This document shows positions 3,600-64,000 of a DNA stretch of 64,000 nucleotides, piece after piece. The position numbers and the translations under genes are program-made. This DNA comes from Eledone cirrhosa (lineage: Eukaryota): assembly GCA_964016885.1 (NCBI GenBank), contig OZ024743.1, positions 153,140,001 through 153,204,000 on the forward strand, written 5' to 3'. The notes under the pieces are model-generated. The model ran no database searches. It was not told the origin of the DNA and worked only from the letters and a program-made list of their open reading frames with translations. Each line of letters begins with the position of its first letter. Position 1 is the first letter of the stretch.

Positions 3600-5230
3600 A
3601 CAGTAACAAGGGGTTAGCCATGTGAGCCCAATGAAAAGCTTCCCCATTTTTTCCTACCATCTGCATCCTCTCTTGGATTTTATTTCCTTCTCTTTCATCA
3701 TTAGCCATATCTTTTTTGGACTGTCCATTCTTGTAATTCCTTCAACATTTATTTCCATCATTCATCTCACCAAGTCACATGATCCAACCATTTCATTCCA
3801 TTTCTATTTATAATATTCTATTTCTACCATCCACTGCTTGATTCAACTCTCTCAGTGATACTTCTCTCATCTATCAAATTGCTATCATTTCTATTCTTTC
3901 CAGCTTTCTTTGCTGCACATGTTGACCATACCTTTCTACCACCTCTTAATCTTCTTCCTCAGTCTATTCATACTCCCTTTTATTATCACCAGATCCTCTG
4001 TATACAGCAAATTCCATGGTAAATCCTCCTTTAAACTTCAATTGTAGTGAACTTAATACTGATGCCTGATTCACTCCAGCCTTTATTTAAAACTTGGTAC
4101 TGTTCCTGTCTTTCATTTCTAATGACTATACATGCTTTCTCATACATTGTCATCACTATTTTGGCAGTATTGGTAGAGAGTCGGACGCCATGCTTTCCAG
4201 CATAGTTACGTCCCTTTACGATCTGAGTTCAAATCCCGCCGAGGTTGACTTTGCCTTTCATCCTTACGGGGTCGATAAAATAAAGTACCAGTAATGCACT
4301 GGGTAATTGCTGGCCTTGTGCCTAAAGTAGAAACAACTATTATAACAAAGCATTTTTTTTCCTCCCAACTCATTCACTGCCAGTGTCACTTCTTCAAATG
4401 GAACCCTATCAACATTTTTCTCTAGATTAACAATCCAAAGAACAAATTCTTCCCCTTGTTCTTATACTTCTCCCGTAACTACCTCACAAGAAGAATTGCA
4501 TCAGTCATTCCTTCTCCTGGCACAAATCGAAATTGCCTTTCACAATTTTCACTGTTTCCCTTATTTGTTTTTCTAAGACTCCTTCAATGCCTTCAATTCA
4601 TGTTCCAATAAATTACATGTTTTATATGAGCCACAGCCTAGAAAATCACCTTTCCTCTTGTACAGAGAGATGAGATTACTCAAGTCTCAAATCATTGTAA
4701 CATAGACTTCTTTCCCCATCAACCTATATCTCTGTCATTTTATTACACTGTCTTTAACATATACTTCACAACACCTCTCAGCCATTCTGAATTTACACAT
4801 TTCATCTTTTTCAATGCTCCCTCAAATTCTTCCTCAGCTATTTTTCCTCTACCAGTTTCAGAAAAGGATTGCTCTCTATGCTGCCATCCCAGGCTTTTTA
4901 TACATCTCTTCTACTTTTTTTTAATTCTATACGAGTCGATAATTTCTCTCCCTTTTCCCTCAAATAGTTCATCTCTGTCACATCCCACCTGTGTCTGACC
5001 CTCTGAATTTATTCATTCTCTAAATATTCTTCTGTATGCTATGCGGTAGTGCCTTTGTCACTTTGTTTTGCAGACCTTCTGTTACCATACTCCTCACTCT
5101 GACATTTACTGAATCTCCCCCTTTTTTCATCAATTCACTTCACAGCTTCATCATCCAACCTCCATGTTTCCAGATGTCTTAATTTTCCTTTTGTACATCC
5201 ACACACACCAACAAACAGCTCTTAATGCCC
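3600..5230 (-). pseudogene. highly decayed RTE-clade LINE RT relic, interrupted by a SINE
   Basis: Minus-strand remnants such as QFRFVPGEGMTDAILLVR and PWNLLYTEDLVII parallel QFGFEPGKSRTDALFLVR and PWELLYADDLVLI of the RTE at 52-54 kb. Confidence 0.6.
4161..4342 (+). mobile_element. tRNA-derived SINE (Meta-like central domain, Tx1-like tail)
   Basis: A box TGGCAGTATTGG, B box GAGTTCAAATCC, central GCCTTTCATCCTTACGGGGTCGATAAAATAAAGTACC; nine related copies in the window. Confidence 0.85.
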
Positions 5231-19225: not shown

Positions 19226-19530
19226 AATATTGTTATACTTGGGGAGGGTGAAAGATGGCGTAGATATACATAATAGAGGAACATAATAGCAGCATTGACG
19301 ATGTTGCAGAGGTGCAACGAAAGAACTTTCATAGACTATATATATGTGTTTGTGTCGATATTATATCCGTATTTTTGACCGTTGGTCAGTCAATGGTAAA
19401 CATTGAGGACCAAATGAATTAACTGATATAAAAGATACAGAAGCGAAAACCAACCAAACAGTGAGTGTGTTCTGTTATTAATTCTGGCAATATTATTACA
19501 ATATGATCTTCCTCAAGTATAACAATATAT
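19226..19530 (+). repeat. ~300-bp dispersed repeat (family B) with a decayed hammerhead motif
   Basis: Homologous to 22730-23020; TTGACGA-T-GTTGCA-GAGG-TGCAAC-GAAA at 19295-19322; short inverted terminal segment (19228-19250 vs 19508-19527). Confidence 0.65.
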
Positions 19531-19540
19531 ATATATATAC

Positions 19541-19610
<70 letters not shown>

Positions 19611-21716: not shown

Positions 21717-21818
21717 CTGTGTGTGTGTTTTTTATTTTGTATTTTAATTATTGGCAACATGACCCTCCCAAAGTATAACAATATTTTAATTTCTTTATCT
21801 CTTTACAATTCATCACCC

Positions 21819-22099
21819 TCTGAAATAGCTATATATATATGAATGTATATATAGTGTATTTTGCAATACACTGTATGCTTAATTAAAAGCATTTCGAAGA
21901 CCTTATGCTATTGTTTTAGAGTAGTGACAGACTCACTTACTTTAATTTTCAGCAAACAGGAGGAGATAAAGCTGACAAGGCCTTGTTTTGCATTTACTGA
22001 TGCTTATCAAAGCCAACTACTCCCCCTGTTTGCTGAAGTAATGGATGTTTGGTTCTTATAGAATTCTAGTAAATAATCAGGAACTGATTATACAGAGCG
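21819..22099 (-). mobile_element. retrozyme-like repeat family A, inverted partial copy
   Basis: Reverse complement of 22232-22490 plus the unit junction. Confidence 0.8.
21947..22038 (-). ncRNA. type I hammerhead ribozyme, U3-A8 core, G12A-mutated copy
   Basis: Minus strand GGCT-TTGATAA-GCAT-CAGTAA-ATGC-AAAA-CAAGGCCTTG-TC-AGCT with a long distal stem I. Confidence 0.75.
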
Positions 22100-22593
<494 letters not shown>

Positions 22594-22853: not shown

Positions 22854-23019
22854 CTGTATTTTTAACCATTGGTCAATCAATGATAAACATTTATTGCCAA
22901 ATAAATTAACTATGGAGATATAAAAGATACAAAAGCGAAAACCAACCCAAACCAAACAGTGAGTGTGTTCTGTTATTATTTATGGCAATATTATAACAAT
23001 ATGACCCACCCCAAGTATA

Positions 23020-23020
<1 letters not shown>
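22730..23020 (+). repeat. family B repeat, second copy, with a decayed hammerhead motif
   Basis: CTGATGA-T-GTCGCA-GATG-TGAGAC-AAAA-GAACTT at 22755-22788; interrupted by (TA)n. Confidence 0.65.
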
Positions 23021-23076
<56 letters not shown>

Positions 23077-24009: not shown

Positions 24010-24242
24010 CCCAATCTAGCTGTCGTCTGTTCTACAGTGTGGATGTCATTCACTTCGCACAGAAGTTTTGTTCAAATTTTTTGAGGAAATTTTGTGAGTT
24101 CAAACTTAATTTTGATACAATTGTGTAGCTTGACCCTCCGTCTGAACTGTCAGGCGGTGGGTCAGCTCATCTTTACCCCTCCTAGAGGTGAAAAACCTGT
24201 TTTAAAAAATTTTGTGTAAAAAATTTCAATCGTCTAACAGAA

Positions 24243-25682
24243 ATGTTAAACGCAGCGAACGAAAATAGTGGTGGGGGGACAGCGGTAAGAGTTGTAAGCT
24301 CGCACGCTTTAGTCCTCCCTTCCTTCCCAACTAACGTCATAGAGAAGGAAGGAAAAATTAAAATAAAAACAGACGAATCTGCGGAGAAAAAATTAAATGA
24401 CGAAAACACAAATCTGGACTTGGATTCCAACAACGAAAAAAAAAAATTTGAAAAATTGCATGACAATACTAATAACACAAACAAAGACACAACAAACACA
24501 AAAATAACAGTTGAAAATAACACCATATCAGAAAACAAAGCAGACGACAAGATTTCATTTGCACAGAAAACAAAGAAAGCTTTGACTTATATAGCGGAAA
24601 ACATTTCAGATGTGGTACGAAGGATCACGGACGCCAAACAATACATAAGTGAAGGAGAGAATGGTATTTTATCGGTAAAAATGCCTCAAGAATTCACGAA
24701 AGACATTGAAAGCCGAACGGTCAAGTTTCGGACCATCAACAACAGTACAAAAAAACCTGAACAGCCTTCTCAAGCAGATATCAAAACAGTACTCACAGAA
24801 GTACTTAATGAAACCACTTTCATAAGAAAAGACAGACTGTATGGAAGCCTAGCAATTATCATGAAGAACGAATCGGCGGCAAAAAAATATGCTTTGTCAC
24901 CGATTCGTTCGAAAAATTTCACCTTTTATCCATCTTATATGGGGAAAAGAACTCAACGCATATGGCTGGATGCAATGATGCCAGATGTGGACTACTGCTG
25001 GCTCATAGCTGGCTTCATCGATCCAGTGAATGACAACGTGATTTCCATTGGGAAAACCACAGGCAATGCGTTCAGTGGAACAGGTATAGAGCTGGTAGTA
25101 CAAATGAAGCCTGAACGCATCGCCCAAATACCCGACAGAATCCTATTAGAGGACCACGGGTATATAAACATCAGCGTGGAGGGGAGAAGGCCGTCCTGCC
25201 ATATATGTGCAGGCAGAGGGCACCTGAAGGCCGCTTGTCCCCAACTCAACAAAAAGAAAACCCTGCTACCAACACCAGCTCCACCACCACCACCACAACA
25301 GATAAACAAACAACAAAACTCAGTCCCACCCAACCCGTCCCTCAGTAAAACCACAACACCACCACAACACAAACAGTCACAACACATTACCCCAAAACAA
25401 AATACAGGCCCACCCAACCTCTCACTCAATAAAACAACACAACCACCGCAGACACAACACACAACACAGTCTAACATAGTGACATCCATCTCCCCCACAA
25501 AGAAAACCAACACGGAAACATTACCAGCAAACATACCTCTTCCCTCCAACACTGAAGATAACCCAACGAATTCGGAGGAAGAAACGGAGTCCTTCAGACA
25601 GATTAAAAGGAGAAAAAGAAAACATGTGCAAAACACACAAGGACAAACAACCCCCACCCAAATCTCAACACAATCCAACTAG
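24243..25682 (+). CDS. Tx1 ORF1 (gag-like nucleic-acid-binding protein with a CCHC knuckle and P/T/Q-rich linker)
   Basis: 479 aa; CHICAGRGHLKAAC is C-x2-C-x4-H-x4-C; homologous to the decayed ORF1s at 16064-16704, 41201-42229 and 56489-57322. Confidence 0.88.
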   Translation: MLNAANENSGGGTAVRVVSSHALVLPSFPTNVIEKEGKIKIKTDESAEKKLNDENTNLDLDSNNEKKKFEKLHDNTNNTNKDTTNTKITVENNTISENKADDKISFAQKTKKALTYIAENISDVVRRITDAKQYISEGENGILSVKMPQEFTKDIESRTVKFRTINNSTKKPEQPSQADIKTVLTEVLNETTFIRKDRLYGSLAIIMKNESAAKKYALSPIRSKNFTFYPSYMGKRTQRIWLDAMMPDVDYCWLIAGFIDPVNDNVISIGKTTGNAFSGTGIELVVQMKPERIAQIPDRILLEDHGYINISVEGRRPSCHICAGRGHLKAACPQLNKKKTLLPTPAPPPPPQQINKQQNSVPPNPSLSKTTTPPQHKQSQHITPKQNTGPPNLSLNKTTQPPQTQHTTQSNIVTSISPTKKTNTETLPANIPLPSNTEDNPTNSEEETESFRQIKRRKRKHVQNTQGQTTPTQISTQSN

Positions 25683-25901
25683 ACAGAAAACACCCCTCCA
25701 GCAACAAACAAAACCAAACCTGCCCCTCCCCTCTTCGAAACACTCACACCATCGGAAAAAAAGACATTACACTATACTTACATCAACAGAAACAATAATA
25801 AATTAAATGAGCTCATATACAATAATCCTTCGGTACAAACCGAAGGCGTAAACTTTGTTTCGTCAGAAAACTACCCACATTTAAAACTAATAAAGATCCC
25901 A

Positions 25902-28900
25902 ATGAACCTCTACCAAAAACTAAAAAAGGATTTTAAGGAGGACGTAGGACCACCCTCTGTCAAACCCATAAACCGCGTCCTACTAAAAAGCTTTCCCCCT
26001 CCCCTTCCCCTCCCCAACACAACTCCAAACACCCCAACCCCACCACACACTGACGACCCCACATCACCACAAGACACCCCTTCACCCAACACCCCCGACC
26101 CCATGGAAGTCGTGCAACCCTGCTTTGGCTCTGCCGCCCACATGGATGTGTTAAGAGTAGGATGTTTGAATGCACGTGGCCTGGGCTCAACTTGGAAGCA
26201 AGCAAAGCTTCTAAATGACCTCAGGTCATGTAGTATAAATGTAATGGTTATCTGTGAGACTCGAATCAGCGTCGTGCGGCAGCTGGCCCCCACCTTCGAT
26301 GACTTTGAGGTGCATGCATCTCTCTGTCAACCTGGAGGTGGGGGTGGGGTTGTCGTACTGCTGCAAAAACACCTGGGTCTTGCCATACAGGTTGTGCACT
26401 CGGACCCGGAGGGTCGTTTGTTGGTGCTAGACGTTGGCAGTAGTGAAAGTGCGGCCTTGAGACTGGTCGCCGTCTACTCCCCTTTCGGAGCTGAACCGCC
26501 CGACTTCTTCCAGCGTTTAGAGACTTTTCTGGGAACGTCGCGTTCCCTGCTTCTAGCGGGGGATTGGAATGACATCCTGGATGCACGTTGGGACTATGCA
26601 GGAGCATGTCCTAATAGAGGGGGGTGTAACAGCCTCAAGGGGTTACTCGACCGTTTTAACTTGGTCGATAGATATCGACTAGATTTTCCAACTGTGCCTA
26701 CCTGGACTTGGAGAAACCACAGTGGTCAATCTAGATCGTACTTAGATAGATTCTTAGTTAGAAGTAAGGATAGGGACATATTAAGCTGTCCAGAAATGCG
26801 CACGGTTGGCTACACGGATCACAAATTAGTGACCTGCGTGGTCAATCTCGAGAAAACACATAGACAGGGTCCCGGTTACTGGAAACTTAATTTGTCTTTA
26901 CCGGAAAAAGAGACTTACAGAAACCGGATTAGCAGATTAGTTAAGGAGAGGTTGACGGGTGCAATCGTCAACAACCGATGGTGGGCATCTCTCAAAAGAG
27001 AGATTAGAACAGAATCAATAAGTTATAGCAAGATGTTAGCTGCCGATAGGAATAGAAACGAGAAAGAATTAACAGGTAAATTAGAAGAGGCAATCAAGAG
27101 CGAAGATGTGGCCAGAGTGCTGGCATCGAGGACGGCCTTGAACCAGTTTTTCGATGCAAAGCACGAAGGCTGCGTCATTCGAAGTAAAATACGTGCTCTA
27201 GGTAATGAGGGGGCCAAAGCCGTTGGATGGGCCCGCGTGACAGAAGCTAAGAGTGGAAATCGATCCACCATCCGGTCGTTGCAAGACGAAGATGGACGGG
27301 TGATCCGGGAGCCTAAGCAGATGTGCGAGGCCTTTCAAAGGCACTTTGCCCGATTGTTCGGGGGAGGCGAGGGTCCGGGCGGGGGCGTGGATTTCGGTCC
27401 ATACCTCGACGGCCTGCCGCGTCTCTCGAGCGAAGAGGCAGAGTCCTGCGAGGGACGAATCTCGGCTGATGAGATCGGAGATGCGCTGAGCCAATGCAGC
27501 AGACGCAAATCTCCAGGTCTCGATGGTATACCTTACGAACTTTATTTAGCAATGCCGGTCTTCTTCTCCGAACTCCTCGAAGCGGTCTACTGTAATTGGC
27601 AGCAGAACGGGAGAATTCCTTGTTCTGTAGCCAAGGGCGTAGTCACGCTGGTGAGGAAGGACGAGAACAAGGGGGATAGTATAAATAATTTTCGGCCCAT
27701 AACCCTGCTAAACACAGAGTTAAAGATTTTGGCCAAGGTGTTAGCAAAGAGGTTGGCGCTTGTCGTGGGTGGCCTGGTGGGAGATGCGCAGACATGTGCT
27801 ATCCCATCCAGGTCCATTCACGATAACCTCCACCTCATGCGATACATCATAGAGAGGGTTGGCAACAAACCCGGCTTCGGTGGGGCCCTGATCAACTTGG
27901 ATCAGTCTAAGGCCTTCGATAGGGTCGACCATGGTTACCTGGATGCGGTGCTAGCGGCGGCTGGGTTCGGTCCTGTTTTCAGAGGCTGGATCACTGCCGT
28001 ACATAGCAACCACATCTGTTCTAGGATCAAGGTGAACGGCTACCTTTCGAAGCCGTTCGAAATCACACGATCCATTCGACAGGGGTGCCCTCTCTCCTCC
28101 CTTCTGTACGTATTGACTCTCGAGCCTTTACTGAGGAAGTTGGAGTTGTTGCAGGGTATCCCCCTGGAACCAGGATTGAGCAAAGCGGTGTCGGCCTACG
28201 CCGATGACGTAACAGTAATGGTATCAACCGACTCGGAGATCGAGGCGATCGGTACCTTACTGGAGGAGTACGAAAGGTTGTCAGGAGCGAAACTGAACCG
28301 GGAAAAATCCATCGGGCTGCAACTCGGAACGTGGAGAGGCAGACCGATGCCTCCTGACGGTGTCGTCGGACACTGGACGGAGGGCCCGGTAAAGTTGCTT
28401 GGGGTCTGGTTTGGACCGGACCTCCAGGTGGAAAAGAACTGGAACGAGGTTACGAACAAGGTGTTTGCACTAACCCAGAAATGGGCCAAGTGTAAGCTGT
28501 CCCTAAAAGGCCGGGCGGAGGTGGCGAACATTTTCATAGCGTCCGTCACTTACTACCGCCTGACTGTCGTGCCTTGCCCTAAGGAAACACTCACCACCAT
28601 GGAACGCATGCTCTTCCAATTTCTTTGGAAGAAGCGTCCTCCTATGGTGAGAAGATCCATCTGCTGCCAACAACCTTCGAAAGGAGGGCTGGGGATGCCG
28701 TGGTTGATGATGCGTAGGCACGCATTAAGGCTACGGCACCTACAGGTATTCCTCACTGGTCAATCGGTGTGGGCTCCGTTCGTGAAACGAGCCTTTCCGA
28801 GACTCGTCTCGCTCACCGAGCTACAGTCCTGGGTCAAGCAAAGATCCGGAAAACTGGGAGACTGGCACACTGAGTGTGCTCAGGCGCTCAGGGCTCTCTG

Positions 28901-29579
28901 GCAAGCGGGCCAGGCCATCGGTGGAGAATCCACCTCATCATTCTATAGAGGGCTGGTGGCTAGCAGGGGCGATGACACCCTTGGAGAGTCGCTGGACATG
29001 GAAGAAGACGAACTGGCCAGCCTGTTCGGTAGGACTTTCGGCCCAGGACCAATGGACAACTTCCAGAAGTCACTGGCCTGGCAGTGCTACCGGGGGGCTC
29101 TACCCGTTCGAGATAGGCTCTACAGACACGGGCGCCCGGGCAGGGATCCCTCAAAAAAGATTTGCCCTAGATGCGTGCGTCACGAAGAAACCGTTGCGCA
29201 CGCATTGGTGCAATGTCCAGGCGTGGCTGATCTGTGGGGCTACGCCGAACAACTGCTGTCGCGGGTGGCGCCGATTAAATTGACCGCCGAGTCCGTGATG
29301 ACAATCAAACCGCCTCCCCTCTTCACAAAGGAAGCAAAGGCGGTTTTTCTGTGCGTAATAGCCATGTTGAAAGAGGTTGTTTGGTGGACACGATTGAAAG
29401 GTCTGAGGTCAGGCAACTTCCTCTCTGGCCATAGTCTGGTCTACTTCTTCCGATATCACTTCGGAAGAAGGATAAGAATGGAGAGAGAGGTGCTTGGCCA
29501 CAGGCAGTTTTATGAAAGGTGGGTGATAGTGGCGAGAATGGCTCGTGTAAATGGGCCTTCTCTGTATACCATCCTGTAG
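25902..29579 (+). CDS. Tx1 ORF2: APE endonuclease, reverse transcriptase and C-terminal Cys/His domain
   Basis: 1225 aa uninterrupted; LNARG, ICETR, GDWN, SYLDR, YTDH, FRPITLLN, DQSKAFDRVDH, RQGCPLS, AYADD, CPRC...HALVQC. The endonuclease begins at about Met 26142. Confidence 0.96.
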   Translation: MNLYQKLKKDFKEDVGPPSVKPINRVLLKSFPPPLPLPNTTPNTPTPPHTDDPTSPQDTPSPNTPDPMEVVQPCFGSAAHMDVLRVGCLNARGLGSTWKQAKLLNDLRSCSINVMVICETRISVVRQLAPTFDDFEVHASLCQPGGGGGVVVLLQKHLGLAIQVVHSDPEGRLLVLDVGSSESAALRLVAVYSPFGAEPPDFFQRLETFLGTSRSLLLAGDWNDILDARWDYAGACPNRGGCNSLKGLLDRFNLVDRYRLDFPTVPTWTWRNHSGQSRSYLDRFLVRSKDRDILSCPEMRTVGYTDHKLVTCVVNLEKTHRQGPGYWKLNLSLPEKETYRNRISRLVKERLTGAIVNNRWWASLKREIRTESISYSKMLAADRNRNEKELTGKLEEAIKSEDVARVLASRTALNQFFDAKHEGCVIRSKIRALGNEGAKAVGWARVTEAKSGNRSTIRSLQDEDGRVIREPKQMCEAFQRHFARLFGGGEGPGGGVDFGPYLDGLPRLSSEEAESCEGRISADEIGDALSQCSRRKSPGLDGIPYELYLAMPVFFSELLEAVYCNWQQNGRIPCSVAKGVVTLVRKDENKGDSINNFRPITLLNTELKILAKVLAKRLALVVGGLVGDAQTCAIPSRSIHDNLHLMRYIIERVGNKPGFGGALINLDQSKAFDRVDHGYLDAVLAAAGFGPVFRGWITAVHSNHICSRIKVNGYLSKPFEITRSIRQGCPLSSLLYVLTLEPLLRKLELLQGIPLEPGLSKAVSAYADDVTVMVSTDSEIEAIGTLLEEYERLSGAKLNREKSIGLQLGTWRGRPMPPDGVVGHWTEGPVKLLGVWFGPDLQVEKNWNEVTNKVFALTQKWAKCKLSLKGRAEVANIFIASVTYYRLTVVPCPKETLTTMERMLFQFLWKKRPPMVRRSICCQQPSKGGLGMPWLMMRRHALRLRHLQVFLTGQSVWAPFVKRAFPRLVSLTELQSWVKQRSGKLGDWHTECAQALRALWQAGQAIGGESTSSFYRGLVASRGDDTLGESLDMEEDELASLFGRTFGPGPMDNFQKSLAWQCYRGALPVRDRLYRHGRPGRDPSKKICPRCVRHEETVAHALVQCPGVADLWGYAEQLLSRVAPIKLTAESVMTIKPPPLFTKEAKAVFLCVIAMLKEVVWWTRLKGLRSGNFLSGHSLVYFFRYHFGRRIRMEREVLGHRQFYERWVIVARMARVNGPSLYTIL

Positions 29580-62280: not shown

Positions 62281-62588
62281 TATAAATTAATATTTGATGA
62301 ACATTTACATGTTTTAGTTGCAATTGACTAATAAGATCGCTAGAGTGAAAAATCTTAATTCAACAACATAAAGTCTGCCTGTACGATCTAAAAAATAATA
62401 AATCAATACTCACAGACTTATATGGGCAAAAAGCCCATATGGCTTTTTGCTCATATGAGTCTGTGAGTATTGATTTATTATTTTTTAGATCGTACAGGCA
62501 GACTTTATGTTGTTGAATTAAGATTTTTCACTCTAGCGATCTTATTAGTCAATTGCAACTAAAACATGTAAATGTTCATCAAATATTA

Positions 62589-62595
<7 letters not shown>
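62281..62595. repeat. near-perfect 315-bp palindrome (155-bp arms, 5-nt centre)
   Basis: 62281-62435 is the reverse complement of 62441-62595, with two mismatches seen near the centre. Confidence 0.95.
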
Positions 62596-62641
<46 letters not shown>

Positions 62642-62660
62642 GTTTATATATTTATTTATA

Positions 62661-62779
62661 TTTTCAGCAAACAGAGGTGATAAAGCTGACAGAGCATTCT
62701 AGTAATAATCAGGAACTGATTATACAGAGCAGTTGCCGGTCAAGCAAAAATTGAAAATTGGAATTGGTGCTCTGAAATA
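62661..62779 (-). mobile_element. family A inverted partial copy with the ribozyme core deleted
   Basis: Minus strand joins ...ACTAGAAT directly to GCTCTGTCAGCT... Confidence 0.75.
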
Positions 62780-63120
62780 TATATACATTCATATATATAT
62801 CGCTATTTCAGAAAACCAATTCCAATTTTCAATTTCTGCTTGACGCCCAACCGCTCTGTATAATCAGTTCCTGATTATTACTAGAATTGTATAAGAATCA
62901 AACATTCATGATTTTCAGCCAACAGGTGGAGTACTTAGCTTTGATAAGTACCAAAAAGTACGAAACAGAGCTCTGTCAGCTTTATCTCCCCTGTTTGTTG
63001 AAAATTTAAAGTAAGTGAGACTGTCACTACTCTAAAACAATAGCATAAGGTCTTCGAAATGCTTTTAATTAAGCATACAGTGTATTGCAAAATACACTAT
63101 ATATACATTCATATATATAT
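62780..63120 (+). mobile_element. retrozyme-like repeat family A, one complete unit (period 320 nt)
   Basis: ATATACATTCATATATATAT at 62781 and 63101; collinear with 22181-22490. Confidence 0.82.
62911..63005 (+). ncRNA. intact type I hammerhead ribozyme with a U3-A8 core; predicted cleavage after C62977
   Basis: AGCT-TTGATAA-GTAC-CAAAAA-GTAC-GAAA-CAGAGCTCTG-TC^AGCT plus distal stem I ATTTTCAGCCAACAGG/CCTGTTTGTTGAAAAT. Confidence 0.85.
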
Positions 63121-63165
63121 ATATATATATTAATAAATGGAAACTATATTAATAAAACCATAATT

Positions 63166-63210
63166 ATTTTATTATATATATTTCAAGGGCGCGCTTTCAT
63201 CAGATAAAAT
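63166..63210 (-). ncRNA. minimal type I hammerhead ribozyme with a canonical core
   Basis: Minus strand ATTTTAT-CTGATGA-AAG-CGCGCC-CTT-GAAA-TATATA-TA^ATAAAAT; stem I is a perfect 7 bp. Confidence 0.78.
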
Positions 63211-64000
63211 ACAAGATTTGTTTTATAAATATTGACATAACCGTGGAAAAACAACTTCGACGGTTGAAAGATCACTGGATAGTGGAACAAATTTTTTATT
63301 GAGGGTAATTCAAAGTTCTGTGTGATTATGCAAATGAATGTCCGAAAGATTGAAAAAACATCCGTTTATTTAAATTATACTGTTGGAAGAAGAGAGAGAA
63401 AAAAGAGAGAGAAAAGCGAGAAAGCAAAATGAGAGAAAAAAAGAGAGAAAAAAGAAAGAGGGAAAAGAATATTATTATATGTAGAGTTATAGTGGAGAAA
63501 TAAAGTGAAGAAAGAAAGAGCGAAGAAATAAGCTTATTAAAGGATGAGTTTGTATATCGTAAATACGTCATATGTTCATGTTAGATATTTATGTTACGTA
63601 TATTTACTTATAATTGTTAAATTTTACTATAGTAAGTATATATAAAGTTAGATATATAGGAAAAATAAAGAAAAAAAAAAGATATATTAAAACAAAGATA
63701 TATTAAAAAAAAGATATATTAAAACATATTAAGATATATTAAAATATATCTACATATATTAAAATATATTACAAATGGAGCATAGATATAAAGATAGATA
63801 TATGAGAGTATAATGGGTATATCATGTTATAGATGTTAAATTATTTAAATTAAATTAAATTAAATTAATTGAGTCTATAAAATAACTTATATATTTAATG
63901 TTTTACATTGGAAAAATATTGAAAATCCGAGTTTTGTTTATTTATTAATTATTATGAGATAAGTTTGACAATGATATGTTTAAAGATATATTTCGCCATA

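Follow-up and report, generated by a model that had tools for sequence, protein, structure and literature searches.

The 64,000-nucleotide window of Eledone cirrhosa DNA analysed here (contig OZ024743.1, positions 153,140,001 to 153,204,000) contains a hammerhead motif with an unusual core, and raises the questions of whether it is a genuine self-cleaving ribozyme, what kind of element carries it, and how a U3-A8 pair came to stand at positions 3 and 8 of the core. The parts of the motif are listed below, the first line resting on the letters, a structured scan, the HH9 alignment and pair counts, and the others on the sequence.

62911..63005, plus strand: type I hammerhead with a U3-A8 core
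62937-40/62978-81, plus strand: proximal stem I, AGCT/AGCT
62941-47, plus strand: core UUGAUAA (DNA TTGATAA)
62948-51/62958-61, plus strand: stem II, GTAC/GTAC
62952-57, plus strand: loop II, CAAAAA
62962-65, plus strand: GAAA (G12-A15.1)
62966-75, plus strand: CAGAGCTCTG
62976-77, plus strand: TC, in the hammerhead 3' of CAGAGCTCTG
62965-76, plus strand: palindromic stem III of the hammerhead

The letters and coordinates in the preliminary description of this motif hold on the sequence, which has a Watson-Crick 3-8 pair, GAAA and an NUH site (UUGAUAA, GAAA and GUC) as in other type I hammerheads; the predicted cut at this GUC site falls after C62977 (C17). The motif is closed by a long distal stem I, in which the window copy departs from the majority of copies at 62920 and 62998, and none of 200 shuffled sequences is equally stable (z = -6.3). 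In a structured scan of both strands it is the sole U3-A8 match in the window, and it is absent from the output of the canonical scan, bearing out the earlier statement that a CUGANGA pattern would miss it. Comparison with Rfam, which had been proposed as a check, yields a match to Hammerhead_HH9 (RF02275) at 62924-62999, although its score of 24.7 bits lies below the gathering score of 52 and does not place the motif in that family; the E value is 0.088 with the whole window as query and 0.00048 with 351 bases. The likeness to the HH9 consensus, in sequence alone, extends to the two elements of a possible tertiary contact, loop II (CAAAAA here, and CAAHHA-like in most copies) and the UAC-like strands of the stem I internal loop, and the type I topology is shared, whereas the proximal stem I of four pairs with U-U mismatches and the mobile, multicopy context are not. 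Many Rfam microRNA matches in the window also fall below threshold and are microsatellite artefacts.

The hammerhead lies within a repeated unit, overlooked in the preliminary description, that is inserted twice in the window, both times head-to-head and both times ending in (TA)n. The full unit below was delimited by BLAST against other loci and by the tandem period, and the partial unit preceding it by sequence and its match to the unit 3' end.

62802..63118, plus strand: one full retrozyme unit, ~320 bp, non-coding, with its 3' end running into (TA)n
62780..62801, plus strand: last ~20 bases of the preceding unit (partial tandem)
62655..62779, minus strand: inverted head-to-head arm of the 62802-63118 insertion (unit positions 3-89 at 62779-62693 and 169-209 at 62695-62655)
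21818..22099, minus strand: minus arm of the second insertion, a 5'-truncated unit with a short tail and a hammerhead at 21947-22038
22100..22496, plus strand: plus arm of the second insertion, with a partial unit (22100-22177), a full unit (22181-22496) and a long (TA)n end

The unit is 317 bp long in the window, the tandem period is ~320 bp (320 at locus L100), and no open reading frame of at least 150 amino acids was found over it. A genome search (1,796 contigs, 3.0 Gb in all) gives 284 matches to an exact 31-mer of the core and 1,704 to a degenerate U3-A8 pattern, with none for the reversed-pattern controls, which argues that the motif does not arise by chance. A further pattern adds 534 matches that do not overlap the set of 1,704 (reversed control 0), such that the core boxes are kept in at least 2,238 copies. 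The 40 matches that were scored are 97-98% identical across the 181-base query. Three contig sets from one sample, which may not be independent of the assembly, likewise have the unit as highly repeated; the variants listed for it include paired positions 62949 and 62960 but no core position. Dispersed copies occur together with 26 distinct natural tandem pairs containing two intact cores, and with arrays of ~12 to more than 20 units at three loci. At the array loci L144, L147 and L150 the units are more diverged than the dispersed copies, and the L144 array contains blocks in inverted orientation and a repeatedly occurring unit with an internal deletion; this suggests later amplification at the DNA level. 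Short, non-coding and carrying one type I hammerhead per repeat, the unit occurs both in tandem and dispersed, in a genome that also contains autonomous Penelope-like elements, and has the attributes of a metazoan non-LTR retrozyme.

The copy at 62802-63118 is a young and probably passive monomer with an intact core. Its inverted arm has an internal deletion that takes out the 5' half of the hammerhead, and the hammerheads of the second insertion are also damaged. These are the two homologues that had been offered as evidence of covariation; their places and their stem II and III letters were given correctly, but it was not mentioned that the copy at 21947-22038 (minus strand) has AAAA for GAAA, equivalent to G12A (plus-strand position 21989), and that the copy at 22291-22384 (plus strand) has a broken stem II, GTTT/ATGC. 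As both appear inactive, the evidence for covariation has to come from other loci, where compensatory changes do occur in stems I, II and III and at the 3-8 pair.

Other repeats surround these insertions. A canonical minimal hammerhead with a CUGAUGA core, a palindromic TATATA stem III and an 8-bp stem I is present at 63165-63211 (minus strand), near the 3' end of a different high-copy repeat that lies tail to tail with the unit across (TA)n and is probably a Penelope terminal fragment. Directly to the left of the unit insertion, at 62381-62640, an inverted repeat gives way to unique sequence that ends at (TA)n, a layout resembling another Penelope-type insertion. Short 3'-end copies of another abundant Penelope-like family are located at 19492-19594, 21747-21790 and 22959-23026, each beside TA-rich sequence, and this family is also found downstream of a GIY-YIG gene in locus L100. 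The window further contains an unbroken 1,298-codon frame at 25683-29579 (plus strand) with endonuclease, reverse transcriptase (RT) and zinc-binding domains, similar to LINE ORF2, which is preceded by a 496-codon frame without a Pfam match (24192-25682, plus strand); several diverged copies are present elsewhere in the window.

The manner of insertion was characterised in 133 insertions (149 clusters in the fetched loci, less 4 at locus edges and 12 duplicates), drawn from loci that were the best BLAST or pattern matches and not a random sample. Tandem units are present in 67, a head-to-head junction in 64 and a tail-to-tail junction in 2, while 44 consist of a single piece. The outer 3' ends are fixed, with 178 of 195 at the end of the unit, of which 76 continue into TA repeats, 68 into a tail and 34 into other sequence. 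The tail is ~30 nt long and is made up of the next unit's opening 20-32 bases, with TA following it in 65 of the 68. Single-orientation insertions are commonly truncated at the 5' end (56/68), and among the 50 two-arm insertions one arm is tailed in 41 and neither in 9; both arms are never tailed, against an expectation of 8.4 (p ~1e-4). In 11 of 52 comparisons the distance between the two arms is smaller than that to the nearest other copy, a measure that takes a minimum and thereby favours the outside copy; against the median of five other copies it is smaller in 16 of 52. A single RNA template for both arms is not supported by these figures.

This combination of a fixed 3' end, 5' truncation, an inverted 5' arm, a one-sided tail and a (TA)n target matches what is described of EN+ Penelope-like elements (Neptune and Naiad, Craig et al. 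2021, PMC8557442; Poseidon, Frangieh et al. 2024, PMC11167929), and so supports a Penelope-type insertion. In the portions of those papers used here, these elements have 5' truncations, partial tandems, an inverted truncated 5' copy, a tail of 30-40 bp that is optional and mostly one-sided, targets that are AT-rich or microsatellites, and an internal start of reverse transcription. We therefore regard it as very likely that the motif is the type I hammerhead of a ~320-bp non-LTR retrozyme mobilised by Penelope-like elements. The life cycle envisaged draws on the self-cleavage and subsequent circularisation of tandem retrozyme transcripts (PMC7229834) and on the Penelope descriptions above. Dimeric hammerhead cleavage has been described (PMC6155905). 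Tandem copies would be transcribed, neighbouring hammerheads would pair through their palindromic stem III and then cut, and a host ligase would close the unit-length RNA into a circle. A Penelope RT/GIY-YIG endonuclease would then nick (TA)n DNA and reverse transcription would start internally on the RNA, from either of two fixed positions (~140 and ~170 bases 3' of the cut, ~30 bases from each other), to give 5'-truncated, tandem and head-to-head copies, with U3-A8 as a tolerated compensatory swap. With the genomic 3' end ~140 bases beyond the predicted cut, the template must extend across the cut site, as would be the case for a multimer or a circle; two adjacent internal start sites would together account for the fixed end, the presence of a tail, the inverted arm and the tandem arrangement.

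Conservation of the hammerhead fold was assessed in an alignment of 23 rows hand-picked from 164 distinct cores, with relatedness among the rows inflating the counts. In this alignment 95.3% of 793 cells pair, compared with 39-51% in slid controls, and changes on both sides are seen in 15 of 35 pairs, a number reached by 18 of 500 shuffles; the covariation involves all three helices with stem I open, as in a type I hammerhead. Among subfamilies stem II takes the forms GTAC/GTAC, GCAC/GTGC, GCAT/ATGC and GCTT/AAGC, and stem III has two main forms. Within the U3-A8 clade the 2.1-1.1 pair occurs as U-A and as C-G; the paired changes in stem II and at 2.1-1.1 inside this clade argue that the fold stayed constrained after the swap.

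Leaving positions 3 and 8 free in the searches separates two core types. Among the first 100 matches listed in one search there are 98 U3-A8, one C3-A8 and one U3-G8, and among the first 100 listed for the 534-match pattern 98 are U3-A8, two are C3-A8 and none is C3-G8. A sister subfamily differs, with 90 C3-G8, five U3-G8, four C3-U8 and one A3-G8 in the first 100 listed of 214. Two sister subfamilies with the canonical cores CUGAUGA and CUGAGGA were found through whole-unit similarity, with no requirement for the core; their catalytic boxes are intact with a GUC or GUU site, and C3-G8 sister subfamilies are 73-82% identical to the U3-A8 subfamilies. In a tree of 55 of the 182 real units a single branch parts U3-A8 from C3-G8 with support of 100/100; the tree has no outgroup and is used for this split only, as the subfamily labels inside the U3-A8 clade are partly wrong owing to a loose motif. 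The swap thus appears to have arisen once in the family, in a direction (C3-G8 to U3-A8) that we infer only because C3-G8 is the canonical state. The median divergence of units from their own majority is 2-6% in all eight subfamilies measured, which indicates that both core types were mobile recently. The lack of variable core positions among subfamily majorities is circular, the classifier having required an intact core, and was set aside. In one of the C3-G8 sister subfamilies (L105, L109 and others) stem II has U10.1-U11.1 at its base, the site reads GUU and the palindromic stem III spans 7 nt; this subfamily has nonetheless been amplified to at least 214 copies.

Folding predictions add a competing structure, identified from minimum free energy (MFE) folds and pair counts.

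62937-43 with 62966-72, plus strand: predicted inactive helix between the stem I 5' strand plus U3-U4-G5 and the 5' part of the stem III palindrome

In the window copy the active fold lies 2.9 kcal/mol above the MFE, and the MFE folds of 105 intact copies from nine subfamilies have the core paired, with U3-U4-G5 sequestered, in 95. The MFE of the 26 natural tandem pairs contains a double hammerhead in 12, a single hammerhead in none and neither in 14, with the double form in all four pairs of the window's subfamily. These same figures, the 12 of 26 and the 2.9 kcal/mol, also count against the mobilised retrozyme as the best explanation. For the 26 matching circles the alternative pair probability exceeds 0.5 in 16, and that of stem III in none. 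A single copy is accordingly predicted by these models to prefer the inactive helix, with the core locked in monomers and circles while tandem dimers can form the double hammerhead. This differs from the animal retrozymes of PMC7229834, for which the part of that report used here has most circles predicted with the ribozyme unblocked. Of nine predicted retrozyme dimers in Xenopus, only one cleaved in vitro (bioRxiv 10.64898/2026.07.22.740005), which likewise weighs against the mobilised retrozyme.

Position 3 could on this basis have a dual role, pairing with position 8 in the active fold and otherwise locking monomers and circles through the alternative helix, from which dimers escape, and the history of the family would then be one of co-evolution of an on/off switch; we put this forward tentatively, as a possibility that is more doubtful than not. 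Of the cells in the 23-row alignment, 95.9% can pair in this helix, with position 3 as U-G, U-A or C-G and position 2.1 as U-A, U-G or C-G, and changes in stem III, loop III and 2.1-1.1 following the change from C3-G8 to U3-A8 would have kept it paired. Against such a lock, the changes in the helix are few and all transitions, amplified stem III variants break it, the folding software lacks tertiary energies, and three palindromic strands may give rise to it as a by-product. The signs of an in silico 3-8 swap are also mixed, the gap to the active fold being raised in four of nine subfamilies and lowered in five, and U3-A8 as a simple weakening of the alternative helix was rejected on these grounds.

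The same predictions bear on whether the hammerhead is instead a catalytically silent relic, kept as an RNA structure to which the Penelope enzyme binds. Sequestration of U3-U4-G5 in most intact copies would favour this, as would the stem III variants breaking the 15.4-16.4 pair that are shared by at least 13 of the first 100 matches listed for the degenerate U3-A8 pattern. A lizard Penelope hammerhead offers a precedent, since in the available text on it a protein is needed and insertion in vitro proceeds without hammerhead cleavage (PMC11167929), findings that also weigh against the mobilised retrozyme. A relic is nevertheless unlikely, given that the 3-8 pair has changed on both sides and that intact catalytic boxes with a GUC or GUU site persist in subfamilies recovered with no core requirement. 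Folding software, moreover, omits the tertiary contacts that stabilise active hammerheads.

Penelope-like elements are abundant in this genome, with 10,596 first-look candidates in a GIY-YIG search, of which 150 were scored, and they have RT and GIY-YIG frames, (TA)n ends and a cysteine motif ahead of the nuclease as described for Neptune-type elements. The unit differs from EN+ Penelope-like elements in its lack of an ORF and its length of ~320 bp, and a BLAST of the unit against 40 loci around GIY-YIG matches or an array found no autonomous partner or coding element sharing its sequence. No unit copy extends into a shared RT/GIY-YIG ORF among the fetched loci, and where a copy has a Penelope RT (L045) or a GIY-YIG gene (L062) beside it, the two are best taken for separate insertions. 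A young autonomous Penelope-like family with RT and GIY-YIG (L081, G000:C1:145867001-145877000, ORF 8121-5308; also at L082, L086, L087 and L095) has a U3-A8 minimal hammerhead with a UUGAAAA core and a CCGG palindrome in both terminal repeats, at 3951 and 8930 (minus strand), and no sequence link to the retrozyme unit. A related family at L061, L062, L064, L068 and L099 has a UUGAUAA hammerhead-like motif 3' of the GIY-YIG gene, with a stem II of GCAT/ATGC flanked by a U-U mismatch and with an internal TA run followed by a tail; its likeness to the retrozyme core is superficial.

These terminal-repeat hammerheads (UUGAAAA in the L081 relatives, UUGAUAA-like in L061, L062 and L064), and the Penelope-type character of every insertion mark, also favour a rival reading in which the unit is the pseudo-LTR of an autonomous Penelope-like element and its copies are the 5'-truncated 3' ends. 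We consider this very unlikely, because the longer copies repeat the ~320-bp unit head to tail, up to at least 20 units, and none in the fetched loci enters a shared ORF, the 40-locus comparison returns only separate unit insertions, and the ribozyme is of the extended canonical and not the minimal type of those elements. Co-option of the window copy as a host regulatory ribozyme, which HH9 in vertebrates and the best Rfam match with its identical loop II might bring to mind, can be dismissed as most improbable for one of hundreds of near-identical young copies, which has two private stem I substitutions and sits among microsatellites and other mobile fragments.

A mobilised non-LTR retrozyme, the preferred reading, brings the unit close to those described in other metazoans (Cervera and de la Pena 2020, PMC7229834; Li, Clavereau and Pollet 2026, bioRxiv 10.64898/2026.07.22.740005), which in the available parts of these reports combine a non-coding unit (150-450 bp) and a canonical type I hammerhead with a low GC content, a palindromic stem III, arrangements from monomers to long arrays, and coexistence with Penelope-like elements. 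It departs from them in having U3-A8 in most subfamilies and, as far as those descriptions extend, in the frequent head-to-head arms and the Penelope tail; it is also known here from DNA, with the RNA predicted. The same two reports already contain animal retrozymes and their proposed Penelope origin. Nor is the U3-A8 core pair itself new, and the rarity implied in the preliminary description does not stand: it was found to be natural and active in vitro in 2011 (Perreault et al., PMC3088659), and in 2014 a descriptor derived from a Schistosoma Penelope element gave ~1,300 matches in Schistosoma mansoni, reported as Cercyon-related minimal hammerheads (Cervera and de la Pena, PMC4209133). Relative to the U3-A8 hammerheads in the accessible text of those papers, the present one is of the extended type, with a loop II and a stem I internal loop, in a non-autonomous unit, and has homologous C3-G8 sister subfamilies in the same genome. 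Literature searches on cephalopod hammerheads, U3-A8 and tailed or inverted retrozymes listed no description of the family, which Repbase, Dfam or the supplements of papers may hold. What goes beyond published work is the set of homologous C3-G8 and U3-A8 subfamilies with one switch on the tree, together with the predicted lock of monomers and circles from which tandem dimers could escape.

The ribozyme variant is thus ordinary, and its value lies in a natural experiment in which C3-G8 and U3-A8 subfamilies have both been mobile recently, the matched subfamilies allowing a direct test of the cost of the swap in a real mobile element. Descriptors restricted to CUGANGA, and the Rfam thresholds, miss more than 2,000 copies in this genome. 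The one-sided tail and fixed 3' ends provide genomic support for the Penelope-driven mobilisation of retrozymes that has been proposed in the literature, and the locking helix, if true, would address the question raised in PMC7229834, within the part of that report available, of what stops the circles of animal retrozymes from cleaving themselves.
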